2,312 nt of DNA. It comes from Escherichia coli (GTDB lineage: Bacteria > Pseudomonadota > Gammaproteobacteria > Enterobacterales > Enterobacteriaceae). The position numbers and the translations under genes were made by a program. Below the pieces are notes generated by a model. That model was not told where the DNA came from. It did no database searches and saw only the letters and a list, made by a program, of their open reading frames with translations. The DNA lies in NCBI RefSeq assembly GCF_044324785.1, contig NZ_CP172133.1; one strand, written 5' to 3'. Shown piece after piece: positions 1-2,312 of the stretch. Position 1 is the first letter of the stretch; every line of letters begins with the position of its first letter.

Positions 1-44
1 CGTGTACAGGATACTCCTGTAACGTGTGGGCGGTATTCCCGTAA
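1..44. repeat. Two tandem 22-bp iteron-like direct repeats (1-22 cgtgtacaggatactcctgtaa; 23-44 cgtgtgggcggtattcccgtaa), upstream of the repL-like gene
   Basis: Head-to-tail 22-bp units with 15/22 identity to each other; unit 1 is 19/22 identical to the unit at 2291-2312. Each unit starts cgtgt and ends gtaa. No spacers, so not CRISPR. A 22-bp period is typical of plasmid iterons. Confidence 0.55.
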
Positions 45-52
45 TCTATATT

Positions 53-118
53 GAGTGACATTTTGTTTTTTGGGCATTATATTGTCTGTCACCTTTATAA
101 AGTGACAAAGGCGATAAA
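53..118 (+). promoter_or_regulatory. Putative promoter/operator region of the repL-like gene, with three GTGACA/TGTCAC hexamers (55-60, 87-92, 102-107) forming an inverted repeat around a palindromic cTTTATAAAg core, and a weak AAGG ribosome-binding site at 108-111
   Basis: Inverted hexamers tgtcac (87-92) and gtgaca (102-107) flank the palindrome ctttataaag (92-101), with another gtgaca at 55-60. Possible -35 TTGAGT (51-56) and -10 CATTAT (75-80). The promoter hexamers are weak and the assignment is tentative. Confidence 0.3.
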
Positions 119-616
119 ATGAACATTACTGAAAGAACGGATAGCAAGAAAAAAGTTTTAAGACAAAATATTACTGAGGTTATAGATAGAGAAACTGGAA
201 ACATAACACAAGAAATAACCGATATAACAGTTCAATTTCCACAAGAACCTGCGTATGTGAAAATTTATATTGATAATTTATGTGCTGTCACAAAAGCACC
301 TGATTCTCTAAAAGATGTTTTATTTTTAATTCTTAGGAAATTGGATTATGACGGATATATTGCATTATCAACTAGATACCGTAAGGAGATCTGTAAATTA
401 TTGGGAATAAAAGACGGAACATTACGTAACAGATTGTATTCATTATCAAAAATGGGGATTATTGCTAGTTGTGGCGGTAATGAATATCAGGCGAACCCTA
501 ATTTATTTGCTCGTGGTGAATGGAAAAAAATAATTGAACAGCGTCGCGAGTTTGAAATGAGAATTAAATATTCACCTAACGGTGAAACTATTATAACAAC
601 CGAAGAAATAAAATAA
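119..616 (+). CDS. Winged-helix DNA-binding protein, RepL-like plasmid replication initiator (165 aa)
   Basis: Intact ORF, ATG at 119 and TAA at 614-616. By-eye similarity to the staphylococcal pSN2 RepL family as I recall it: YVKIYIDNL resembles FVKAYIVQL, the central segment LSTRYRKEICKLLGIKDGTLRNRLYSLSKMGII resembles the RepL helix-turn-helix/wing, and NPNLFARGEW resembles NPELLMRGDD. Iteron-like repeats lie immediately upstream. Confidence 0.7.
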   Translation: MNITERTDSKKKVLRQNITEVIDRETGNITQEITDITVQFPQEPAYVKIYIDNLCAVTKAPDSLKDVLFLILRKLDYDGYIALSTRYRKEICKLLGIKDGTLRNRLYSLSKMGIIASCGGNEYQANPNLFARGEWKKIIEQRREFEMRIKYSPNGETIITTEEIK

Positions 617-625
617 TGTGCACCT

Positions 626-655
626 AAATAAGGTCTTTTTAAAAAGACCTTATTT
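626..655. terminator. Perfect 30-bp palindrome (aaataaggtcttttt|aaaaagaccttattt) between convergent genes; putative bidirectional terminator or protein-binding site
   Basis: Positions 626-640 are the exact reverse complement of 641-655. It lies between the repL-like stop (616) and the mobC-like stop (650-652). The stem is AT-rich with a GGTC/GACC core and has no clean downstream U-tract on either strand, so terminator function is uncertain. Confidence 0.35.
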
Positions 656-1075
656 GAATAAATCCGAACCTGGATATTTATTTTTATGTATCCTTTTTAT
701 TATTTTTATTTCATCCTTTATTAAATCCATTTCATTATATACATCAGAAATTCGCTTCGTTACTATTTTCATTTCATCGCAAAGTAAAATTATTTTATGC
801 ATCACCTCGAGGTACTCCTTATCCTTCGGCCGCTTTCCCTTATCAAATAATTTCTTCTGCATCCGACCAAGTCGGATTAATTCATCTAAATACCTGGAAG
901 GTACGCGCTGTTTTATTTCATTATTTAAACTTGCCGTCCTGATATATTCTGAAATTGTCAGTCCTTCGTTCTTCGCTCGCCGTCTGATTTCGCTTGCGAC
1001 TCTGTTATTTACTCTAAGGGTGATAACCTTAGTTCTCTGCCGTACTTCTGAACCACTACGTTTATTTTTAGCCAT
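650..1075 (-). CDS. Ribbon-helix-helix relaxosome accessory protein, MobC/MbeC-like (about 141 aa from the ATG at 1075; the ORF track extends to an upstream GTG at 1174)
   Basis: The N-terminal region has the hallmark basic stretch, beta-strand and helix: RQRTKVITLRVNNRVASEIRRRAKNEGLTISEYIRTASL, matching the KRxxxVxVRLTxEExxxLxxxAxxxGxSxSEYLR pattern of mobilization accessory proteins. I prefer the ATG at 1073-1075 because a GGAGAG Shine-Dalgarno sits about 10 nt upstream (minus-strand reading), whereas the 1174 start is GTG with no good ribosome-binding site. Stop TAA at 650-652. Confidence 0.7.
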   Translation of the reverse strand: MAKNKRSGSEVRQRTKVITLRVNNRVASEIRRRAKNEGLTISEYIRTASLNNEIKQRVPSRYLDELIRLGRMQKKLFDKGKRPKDKEYLEVMHKIILLCDEMKIVTKRISDVYNEMDLIKDEIKIIKRIHKNKYPGSDLFK

Positions 1076-1144
1076 CGCAATGACTCTCCATTTTGCACGT
1101 TTGGGGTGTCGGGGCTTGCCCTGACAGGAGGTATTCTCATGCAA

Positions 1145-1181
1145 GCGAATGTATTCGCGGTATGACGAATACACATCCTGT
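1145..1181. other. Candidate oriT: overlapping inverted repeats (gcgaat-gt-attcgc at 1145-1158; gtattcg-N8-cgaatac at 1151-1172) followed by cATCCTGt (1174-1181), which matches the MOBP-type nic consensus YATCCTG|Y
   Basis: Inverted repeat followed by a nic-like heptamer about 70-100 bp upstream of the preferred mobC-like start, which is the usual oriT placement. The heptamer alone would occur about once by chance in a sequence this size; the adjacent inverted repeats and the position are what make it a candidate. Confidence 0.3.
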
Positions 1182-1437
1182 CCAATTTTCCGCTACAACT
1201 TTTCGACGAAAATAAAATACCGCGTCGTAACTTGGTATTTCTGATACAAAAAAATGATGCTTCATTCAATATTATTTACACAGATTTTAAAATTATTGCT
1301 TGTTATTTAATAAATAACATCGAATTAATTGATGTCTTTGTTGTCTGTCGTTTGTGGATTATTAGAGTGATAAAGATTAGATCTTCCTCGTTATATAATC
1401 CATTGCCTGTTAATGATACGGAGTGAGTCCAAGGAAC

Positions 1438-1451
1438 AGGAAGCGGAAGAG
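1438..1451. repeat. 14-bp exact direct repeat aggaagcggaagag (second copy at 2133-2146)
   Basis: Exact match read directly from the sequence. The copy at 2133-2146 is part of the ColE1-like gcgaggaagcggaagag motif. Confidence 0.8.
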
Positions 1452-1509
1452 CAAGATAGTAGCATGTACATAAAATATAAATCCGTGAGTTATTGATATC
1501 GCGTTTATA

Positions 1510-1524
1510 TATTAAAAATATAAC
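1510..1524. repeat. 15-bp exact direct repeat atattaaaaatataa (second copy at 2231-2245)
   Basis: Exact match read directly from the sequence. Both copies are in AT-rich DNA adjacent to gatatc-containing sequence, one on each flank of the GC-rich block. Confidence 0.8.
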
Positions 1525-2082
1525 TTAACATTGCTCTTAATATTTATTTTGTCCTGGCAATGGGAGCATTAATCCCCGTGCAGTGCTCCGCCAGCTGCTG
1601 ACAACCTCGACATATAACCATCGATACGATAGAACATCAGGGCGCGTTTCCGGCAAGAACTAACCATGGGGATGGTTTGCGTGCCGACAAACGCCGGAAC
1701 GCGCCTCAAATCCACCAAGCCGCCACGGTTCCGGCAGCGCCTTGAGCGCAACCCGAAACCGTCTGGGGAGAACCCCAGACCCCCACCGCTGCAACATCAT
1801 CGGTCTACGACCACCTACCAACCGAGTGGCTACCTGTGCCGTGCAAACAGGCTTTGCAGGGGGCTGGCGCGGTTCCTGGCGACCTGAAAGCCCCTGGTTA
1901 GGGGTATCGGCGCGCCTGGCCTCCTGAAACCCTCTGTAAGCGTTTTTCGCGCCTTCCATGCCCTGACGGGCATTTAGACCCCGTTTCGTGCGTCTGGGAG
2001 GCTCTGAGCGCGTTTAACAGATGACCAGCGACTCGATCGCCTGAGATCAAATCGGGATCATCAACGATATGCGAGAGGTGAC

Positions 2083-2146
2083 ACCGCTCGCCGCAGCCCC
2101 AGCGACCGAGCCGCCAGGCTCGCGAGTGGGCGAGGAAGCGGAAGAG
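2083..2146 (+). other. Segment homologous to the conserved sequence just downstream of the ColE1/pMB1 origin (the region reported to hold primosome assembly sites)
   Basis: Window accgctcgccgcagcc-ccagcgaccgag-ccgccaggctcgcgagtgg-gcgaggaagcggaagag aligns with pUC19 accgctcgccgcagcc-gaacgaccgag-cgcagcgagtcagtga-gcgaggaagcggaagag from memory, in the same orientation and order relative to the cggttcctggc motif. Confidence 0.55.
2133..2146. repeat. Second copy of the 14-bp direct repeat aggaagcggaagag
   Basis: Exact match to 1438-1451. Embedded in a GGAAG triplet cluster (2134-2156). Confidence 0.8.
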
Positions 2147-2160
2147 AACCGGAAGCTACA

Positions 2161-2178
2161 TTGAGCACGCACGCTCAA
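2161..2178. repeat. Inverted repeat ttgagc-acgcac-gctcaa at the GC-rich/AT-rich boundary
   Basis: 6-bp arms are reverse complements with a 6-bp spacer, read directly from the sequence. Confidence 0.5.
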
Positions 2179-2230
2179 TATTAAAATTGTCACTTCGTAA
2201 ATAGAGATAATGCCTCGTGCTTATGGATAC

Positions 2231-2245
2231 ATATTAAAAATATAA
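2231..2245. repeat. Second copy of the 15-bp direct repeat atattaaaaatataa
   Basis: Exact match to 1510-1524. Confidence 0.8.
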
Positions 2246-2268
2246 GATATCCGAATTAGGCTACATAC

Positions 2269-2312
2269 GGGCTGATCGCCAATGTTGTAACGTGTAGAAG
2301 ATACACCTGTAA
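2269..2312. repeat. Iteron-like 22-bp unit (2291-2312 cgtgtagaagatacacctgtaa) preceded by a possible degenerate unit (2269-2290), continuing in phase with the units at 1-44 if the molecule is circular
   Basis: The 2291-2312 unit is 19/22 identical to 1-22. The window ends exactly at a unit boundary and starts exactly at the next. The 2269-2290 unit keeps only the terminal tgtaa and a few other positions. Confidence 0.5.

Follow-up and report, generated by a model that had tools for sequence, protein, structure and literature searches.

pHW126 of Rahnella and pIGRK and pIGMS31 of Klebsiella pneumoniae are A+T-rich plasmids of 2.3-2.9 kb with two genes (PMC6854812; bioRxiv 10.1101/2022.12.05.519187; PMC2831885). 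In these pHW126-like plasmids a conserved region, iterons and the replication protein (Rep) are needed for replication, the single-strand initiation site (ssi) is dispensable and its loss leads to multimers, and Rep represses its own promoter (PMC6854812; bioRxiv 10.1101/2022.12.05.519187). Rozhon et al. earlier proposed a RepL/pSN2/pHW126 superfamily (PMC2831885); for the RepL plasmids of Firmicutes, the replication mode itself is poorly studied (bioRxiv 10.1101/2022.12.05.519187). Here, we analyzed a stretch of 2,312 nucleotides of Escherichia coli DNA (contig NZ_CP172133.1), referred to at its full length as the window. It is one complete turn of a known circular, mobilisable and cryptic E. 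coli plasmid of 2,312 bp, and an ordinary member of the RepL/pHW126-type architecture. Like the pHW126-like plasmids, it is a small, A+T-rich plasmid with two genes, whose elements come in the order ssi-like palindrome, conserved region, array of direct repeats (22-bp period), promoter with short inverted or direct repeats, and rep. The Rep proteins are small winged-helix proteins distantly related to RepL, and autoregulation is known for those of the pHW126-like plasmids. Differences lie in the repeats (four of 20 bp with 2-nt spacers in the pHW126-like plasmids; three copies with a 22-bp period and a partial one in the window, four in its relative pKP13a), in the size of Rep (201-240 aa versus 165 aa), in mobilisation (a MOBV or MobK relaxase versus a NikA-like protein and an I-complex origin of transfer, oriT) and in the ssi, which in the window is embedded in a 460-bp G+C-rich module. 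Our overall model is that this circular plasmid would replicate through binding of Rep to the iterons, with autorepression of rep, rightward synthesis, an ssi on the + strand and a borrowed relaxase; we put its probability at roughly 0.7.

A preliminary description, made from the sequence alone, had proposed that the window is a complete circular replicon cut inside an array of tandem 22-bp iterons (three or more) that precedes a repL-like gene, with only two proteins encoded. It started from the 19/22 identity between the last and the first 22 bp (2291-2312 and 1-22) and from a GTAA period of 22 bp that is kept only across the joint, and both observations hold when re-read from the sequence. 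Circularity is confirmed by several lines of evidence. Three E. coli plasmid records of 2,312 bp, held as complete, are 100% identical to the window, and the one that was checked, NZ_CP160120.1, is marked circular at 2312 bp. The 300 bp spanning the 2312/1 joint are present without interruption inside this record and inside a cointegrate with an IncK2 plasmid (NZ_KR905387.1), in which the integrated copy was opened at oriT and not at 2312/1. Identical circular records begin at other positions, so that the joint is internal in them. Terminal overlaps point the same way: a SPAdes contig has a 127-bp overlap closing a 2,310-bp circle, and the RefSeq record of p25155 (NZ_CP005932.1), with 2,836 bp, consists of the 2,312-bp circle and 524 bp of exact terminal redundancy. 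A further set of about 20 records of 2,310-2,313 bp is 96.6-99.9% identical to the window, and at least 80% of the window is present in 24 of 5,426 complete E. coli genomes. Near-identical copies are typed as Col(MG828) by PlasmidFinder/MOB-suite.

The plasmid as such is therefore already known, with many database entries that give it as a complete circular replicon and annotate RepL and MobA. These are the only two genes in the RefSeq annotation, in line with the two proteins proposed; the other open reading frames (ORFs) are interrupted by an indel in relatives or split over three frames. An ORF at 1232-1426 was considered as a third gene and rejected, with a 1-bp indel inside it among relatives. 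The preliminary description was right about the array and the circle; it did not mention the prior deposition of the plasmid, the oriT/NikA module or the G+C-rich ssi module, and an account of how the plasmid functions requires both modules.

The iterons (Table 1) are cut exactly between two units by the ends of the window. The GTAA ends of the units lie at 2290, 2312, 22 and 44 and stay in a 22-bp period only when the two ends of the window are joined. Among 200,000 pairs of 22-mers drawn at random from the window, no pair has 19/22 identities (the maximum is 18), and in the circularised sequence adjacent pairs of 22-mers with 19/22 identities start only at 2286-2296. On the circle there are exactly three copies of the decamer TGTAACGTGT (2286-2295, 2308-5 and 18-27), always on the + strand and with a spacing of 22 bp. 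This best-conserved core straddles the unit boundaries drawn in the preliminary description, which fall between TGTAA and CGTGT, and the array can equally be written as three TGTAACGTGT cores with variable 12-bp spacers between them. The spacing corresponds to two helical turns, placing the cores on one face of the DNA, and 74 bp separate the end of the array from the start codon of rep. Tandem Repeats Finder missed the array in the linear window because it is split over both ends; for the identical record NZ_CP160120.1, which has another start, the program reports a period of 22, 2.5 copies, 90% matches and a score of 87.

The geometry of the array is conserved in relatives. In each of those with a Rep 34-82% identical to that of the window (designated L009, L010-L012, L013, L015 and L004), an array with a 22-bp period lies at about -165 to -75 from the start codon. 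L009, with a Rep 82% identical, has three perfect copies of CGTGTGGGCGGTATTCGTGTAA (the L009 segment compared with window 1-44 is 1282-1353), and L010-L012, with Reps about 60% identical, have three near-perfect copies, of which the third differs at one base. L013 and L015 (Rep 54-59% identical) have three copies of a sequence different from that of the window, and pKP13a (L004; Rep 34% identical) has four copies of an unrelated sequence. Thus, the iteron sequence co-varies with the divergence of Rep while position and period stay the same, which is what Rep-binding iterons predict, and the 22-bp array is most likely the binding site of the plasmid's own replication protein, judging from these comparisons. 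Unit 3 is the copy in the window nearest to the perfect iterons of L009 and L010. The two distal units of the window lineage show 7 differences in 22 positions relative to the proximal one, all of them in the 12-bp spacer and with the TGTAACGTGT cores intact, and it is through this divergence of the spacer that unit 2 gained an internal dyad, ACAGGA-tac-TCCTGT (ACAGGAtacTCCTGT). Among six plasmids that are 96.6-100% identical, the core decamers and rep are nearly invariant (one variable site in the 498 bp of rep), compared to 20 variable sites at 1400-1500.

The repeats could be mere operator or regulatory sites, or a product of chance or of assembly (the terminal redundancy of a linear contig), and no origin at all. 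Their position just upstream of the rep promoter, the imperfection of the two outer units and the silence of Tandem Repeats Finder on the window as given are compatible with this. Yet the ends of the window are 19/22 alike and not identical, and hence do not form a k-mer overlap; together with the independent circular records, which hold the array internally, this excludes a terminal-repeat artefact. In addition, the same period and position occur with another sequence in relatives, and the equivalent repeats of pIGRK and pHW126 are required in cis for replication (PMC6854812). We therefore consider it very improbable that the array is not part of an origin.

The Rep protein of the window carries the RefSeq name RepL, and several of its relatives have precomputed matches to the Pfam RepL family (PF05732). 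Using tblastn, relatives were found in Enterobacterales as well as in RepL plasmids of Bacillus and Priestia. The predicted model of the protein contains a winged helix only; no NCBIfam model matches it, and a PDB sequence search found no relative. In a profile-profile comparison (hhalign) with the Reps of pHW126, pIGRK, pIGMS31, pRAO1, pJW1 and pKL1-like plasmids, it aligns over 112 columns with a probability of 89% (E=2e-6), and the BLAST links from the window Rep to the pHW126-family Reps pass through intermediate Reps. These similarities indicate that the window Rep and the pHW126-family Reps belong to the same superfamily, but not to the same clade.

Between the iterons and rep lies what appears from its sequence to be a good sigma-70 promoter, followed by an inverted repeat of the hexamer TGTCAC. 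The motif GTGACA/TGTCAC occurs six times in the window against 1.0 expected, and four of the six fall within 2188-107. L009, L010 and L015 have these motifs at matching offsets, and in L013 the motif at the operator position is exactly the iteron half, TGTACC. Initiators that bind iterons and repress their own gene usually show this layout, which suggests that Rep may regulate its own synthesis. On the other side of the iterons, the A+T-rich region contains a stretch conserved in the subfamily (approximately 2231-2290; AATATAAGATA..GAATyAGGC..TTGTAA, compared with L009, L010-L012, L013, L015 and L004), of which 2239-2295 matches L010-L012 at 80%, and one TGTCAC motif at 2188-2193. By its position, and by analogy with the conserved region ('CR') of the pHW126-like plasmids (PMC6854812), it is a candidate site of opening or nicking.

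Upstream of the A+T-rich region the composition changes: approximately 1560-2150 has 58-64% G+C, compared to 24-45% in the rest of the plasmid. The core of this region (1714-2174) recurs at 74-94% identity in small E. coli plasmids, among them the 1.5-kb pKL1-like plasmids, that together carry five or more different Rep genes of the RepL superfamily. It contains conserved hairpins at 1725-1762, 1763-1778, 1909-1953 and 1958-1973, with a few compensatory substitutions. When each strand is folded as a single sequence, z is -3.2 for one and -3.1 for the other, and consensus folds give -108 and -130 kcal/mol; both strands are rich in G:T pairs. All inspected records typed as Col(MG828) contain the module, and Rep relatives without it are untyped, so the Col(MG828) typing marker probably lies in the module. 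Some 1.5-kb plasmids carry the annotation 'rep protein' or 'replication protein' on a minus-strand ORF in this region (1660-2193; 499-1254 in the 1.5-kb plasmid L006). This ORF was rejected as a real gene because in the window it falls into three frames, is of low complexity and is rich in Arg and Pro, and the annotation is probably spurious.

A role is obvious only for the 3' 70-100 nt of the module, namely that of a ColE1-like site of primosome assembly; the other ~350 nt hold conserved hairpins. Positions ~2055-2150 align with sequences from ColE1-like, IncX4 and IncF plasmids and are located ~140 bp 5' of the iterons. On pPst, a ColE1-type plasmid, the RNAI match from Rfam is on the opposite strand, ~550 nt upstream of the homologous segment. 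This puts the segment ~90-170 nt beyond the expected origin, on the strand that leading-strand synthesis displaces. In ColE1, that position is the PriA-dependent primosome assembly site. By this homology, from which its orientation is also taken, the + strand of the window probably carries an active ssi. The 14-mer AGGAAGCGGAAGAG at the end of the ssi (2133-2146) recurs at 1438-1451, and the motif ATATTAAAAATATAA at the start of the conserved region before the iterons (2231-2248) recurs at 1509-1526. These extra copies lie ~700 bp upstream, in the same order and in the A+T-rich leading region, and may represent a degenerate second copy or a recombination scar.

The conservation of the module raises the question of whether it is itself the real origin, primed by host-driven RNA or primosome functions as in ColE1, with RepL and the repeats acting only as a regulator of copy number or maintenance. 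The module is kept at 74-94% across plasmids with different Rep genes and is present in every inspected Col(MG828) record, its 3' end has a homologue in a primosome site of the ColE1 type, and the 1.5-kb plasmids are little beyond the module and one small gene. However, an Rfam scan of the whole window (E up to 1) found no known family and no RNAI, only a chance match to a snoRNA, whereas RNAI is readily found in pPst. Every plasmid with the module still has a gene of the RepL superfamily, and small plasmids or contigs that lack the module (L004, L010-L015) have homologous Rep-iteron cassettes. The origin of pKL1 has been reported to lie, together with Rep binding sites, upstream of rep. Finally, the requirements of the pHW126-like plasmids, in which the ssi can be lost and the conserved region, the iterons and Rep cannot (PMC6854812), are contrary to this idea, to which we give hardly any weight.

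According to our model, Rep would bind the three TGTAACGTGT cores on one face of the helix and open, or lead to nicking of, the adjacent conserved A+T-rich region. Rep bound to the GTGACA/TGTCAC half-sites, which overlap the -35 box and the leader, would repress its own promoter. Leading-strand synthesis would most likely proceed rightward through rep, displacing the + strand, and the PriA-type ssi on that strand, exposed last, would prime the lagging strand.

As to the mode of replication, we see about equal chances for and against a process that is asymmetric or rolling-circle-like rather than classical theta. The alternative is a classical iteron-regulated theta replicon as in pSC101, R6K and pPS10, in which Rep monomers melt the A+T-rich region, DnaB and primase are loaded with the help of the host, forks proceed in theta form, and the ssi is an auxiliary loading site. 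Like pSC101, R6K, F and pPS10, the window has tandem repeats in helical phase adjoining an A+T-rich region and, in the rep promoter, inverted half-sites that resemble the iterons and could serve autorepression; an initiator with a winged helix and no nuclease motif would fit as well. For pIGMS31, a distant relative, two-dimensional gels reveal theta intermediates in addition to rolling-circle ones (bioRxiv 10.1101/2022.12.05.519187), and the Reps of pIGRK and pIGMS31 autoregulate while their iterons exert incompatibility (PMC6854812; bioRxiv 10.1101/2022.12.05.519187). In contrast to the four classical plasmids, however, there is no DnaA box (TTWTNCACA, 8/8 specified positions) and no integration host factor (IHF) consensus (WATCAANNNNTTR, 9/9 positions) anywhere in the window on either strand. 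Moreover, the ssi is located upstream of the origin, on the strand displaced last by a rightward fork, which is the layout of a rolling-circle single-strand origin (sso). Both the missing sites and the sso-like position argue against a classical (class-A) theta origin. Initiators of the RepA/pi/RepE type have two winged helices. The window Rep, with 165 aa and one winged-helix domain, is half their size and unlike them. In addition, pHW126 loses one of two tandem origins, a hallmark of rolling-circle replication (PMC2831885), and relaxation of DNA in vitro is reported for pHW126 Rep and for RepM (bioRxiv 10.1101/2022.12.05.519187; PMC2831885). Taken together, we regard a classical theta replicon as a tentative and somewhat improbable explanation.

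A more far-reaching proposal is that the 165-aa, single winged-helix Rep of the RepL superfamily, in which no nuclease domain is recognisable, starts asymmetric, rolling-circle-like replication at the iterons, and that the 460-bp module is an exchangeable host-interface cassette. The module might then be a multi-hairpin single-strand origin that serves both vegetative lagging-strand priming and the synthesis of the complementary strand after conjugation, and that is swapped among unrelated Rep/iteron specificities. We consider this proposal unlikely.

Several observations weigh against our model or parts of it. The match of the window Rep to Pfam RepL is weak (E=2e-4, 21.3 bits, residues 10-138), and pairwise BLAST and phmmer comparisons with the Reps of pHW126, pIGRK and pIGMS31, whose sequences were read from a supplement by optical character recognition, are insignificant. 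No nuclease motif or fold, HUH or Rep_trans included, was found in the window Rep, which argues against a rolling-circle nick. The three units of the window are unusually heterogeneous (19/22, 15/22 and 15/22), where relatives have perfect copies, and the operator hexamer TGTCAC has one mismatch in six positions to the iteron half TGTAAC. The G:T wobble counts do not decide which strand of the module folds. Lastly, binding of Rep to the iterons of this plasmid is inferred from sequence.

The second gene, mobA, and the adjacent oriT link the plasmid to the I-complex. The mobA product matches the NCBIfam model NF041264 (MobA) with 98.5 bits (cut-off 80) and the Pfam NikA-like family PF21983 with E=2e-16, and is 44% identical to NikA of the IncK2 plasmid pTMSA992. 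No relaxase gene is present, as there are only two annotated genes and no other ORF in the window is long enough. RP4 and R64 are nicked between ATCCTG and Y. Following this rule, the nick would fall between 1180 and 1181. The whole plasmid is found integrated adjoining nikA in pTMSA992, a 79.8-kb IncK2 plasmid with blaCMY-2 (NZ_KR905387.1, 4001-6330). Both joints of this cointegrate lie inside the shared nic-region 12-mer, with 100% identity on either side, which is the signature of relaxase-mediated oriT-oriT recombination and shows that an I-complex relaxase acts on the oriT of this plasmid in nature. For pTMSA992 and p5312.29, the IncK2 study itself mentions no more than 'a fragment of 2.3 kb between yggA and nikA' (PMC5350095). 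Small plasmids with NikA but without a relaxase are mobilised by I-complex plasmids (PMC9282650). Likewise, the NikA-like protein and the I-complex oriT of the window would borrow the NikB relaxase and the pilus of IncI1, IncK or IncB-O plasmids, for which the natural cointegrate gives indirect support. As the transferred strand is also the + strand, the same ssi could prime synthesis of the complementary strand in the recipient.

Other small plasmids share single modules with the window. pKL1 and the 1.5-kb Col(MG828) plasmids have the G+C-rich module at 85-88% identity and, like the window, a winged-helix Rep of the RepL superfamily with repeats upstream. In contrast to the window, these repeats are palindromic with a period of 21-25 bp, and the NikA/oriT module is lacking. 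The Reps of this group also belong to other branches: that of L006 is 42% identical to the pJW1 Rep, and those of L006 and L008 have no detectable similarity to the window Rep in pairwise BLAST. The Firmicutes RepL plasmids (pSN2/pIM13 family; Bacillus, Priestia) share PF05732 with the window Rep, at 25-32% identity over 59-91% of the protein, and are likewise small cryptic or resistance plasmids, but in different hosts. NTP16, pCERC7 and the pU302S group also encode a NikA-like ribbon-helix-helix protein next to an R64-like oriT and no relaxase, but have ColE1-type, RNA-primed replicons where the window has a Rep-iteron replicon (PMC9282650).

Table 1. Features of the 2,312-bp circular plasmid, in window coordinates.
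Feature	Position	Strand	Description
Partial unit	2269-2290	+	Ends in TGTTGTAA; precedes iteron unit 1
Iteron unit 1	2291-2312	+	CGTGTAGAAGATACACCTGTAA; conserved core TGTAACGTGT starts at 2286
Iteron unit 2	1-22	+	CGTGTACAGGATACTCCTGTAA; 19/22 identical to unit 1
Iteron unit 3	23-44	+	CGTGTGGGCGGTATTCCCGTAA; 15/22 identical to unit 1 and to unit 2
rep promoter	55-83	+	Predicted; -35 GTGACA (55-60), -10 TATATT (78-83); promoter scan 10/12 matches, 17-nt spacer
rep operator inverted repeat	87-107	+	Putative operator; TGTCAC (87-92) / GTGACA (102-107)
rep	119-616	+	165-aa initiator of the RepL superfamily, single winged-helix domain
Palindrome	626-655		Perfect, 30 bp, AAATAAGGTCTTTTTAAAAAGACCTTATTT, 100% complementary; between convergent rep and mobA, overlaps the mobA stop codon; likely a bidirectional terminator
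mobA	650-1075	-	141 aa from the annotated ATG, ORF open to 1174; NikA-like ribbon-helix-helix relaxosome accessory protein
oriT	1103-1183	+	I-complex type, immediately upstream of mobA; collinear with IncK2 oriT
NikA-site-like sequence in oriT	1103-1128	+	GGGGTGTCGGGGCTTGCCCTGACAGG
oriT inverted repeat, 8 bp	1150-1157/1166-1173	+	TGTATTCG/CGAATACA
nic region	1172-1183	+	CACATCCTGTCC; transferred strand is +
G+C-rich non-coding hairpin module	1714-2174	+	460 bp; common to 'Col(MG828)' small plasmids
ssi (primosome assembly site homologue)	~2055-2150	+	3' part of the module; ...CCGCTCGCCGCAGCC..GACCGAGC..GCGAGGAAGCGGAAGAG
A+T-rich region	2178-2290	+	Upstream of the iterons; from composition

With respect to maintenance and distribution, a scan for XerC/D core sites (at least 16/22) found none in the window, and a cer-like resolution site was not identified. 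The relative L010 was considered as a clean plasmid dimer and rejected, as its identity to itself after shifting is only 63%. Small plasmids of the Col(MG828) type (L022-L037), including a near-identical copy of the window (L031), also appear as contigs of 0.4-7.6 kb in assemblies of foreign taxa, labelled Streptomyces, Flagellimonas, Clostridium, Bradyrhizobium, Micromonospora, Mycobacterium and Pseudomonas, among others. For the module, the scan of these contigs gave no wider diversity, only copies close to the E. coli type, and the tiny contigs in unrelated taxa are likely contamination with E. coli plasmid DNA. A 98.9% identical copy has been deposited as a plasmid of Actinobacillus pleuropneumoniae (Pasteurellales; NZ_CP031857.1), which reflects either a truly wider host range or contamination.

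The iteron array is not annotated in the database records, and our literature search found no paper on the origin or the iteron array of this plasmid lineage. The case illustrates that the linear record of a small plasmid can hide the repeats of its origin at its ends, and that repeat finders then need a circularised sequence to detect them. Furthermore, the Col(MG828) signal seems to lie in a shared non-coding ssi module and not in a Rep/iteron determinant, so that this type lumps plasmids of different replication specificities. The 2.3-kb 'fragment' of some IncK2 blaCMY-2 plasmids is a whole plasmid captured by oriT-oriT recombination, which implies that the plasmid interacts with I-complex relaxases in nature. 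What remains new concerns the replication mode of this class of initiators and the exchangeable G+C-rich ssi module. If replication is indeed asymmetric and the module an exchangeable cassette, the plasmid would offer a tractable E. coli model of a mixed theta and rolling-circle mode, so far suggested only for pIGMS31.

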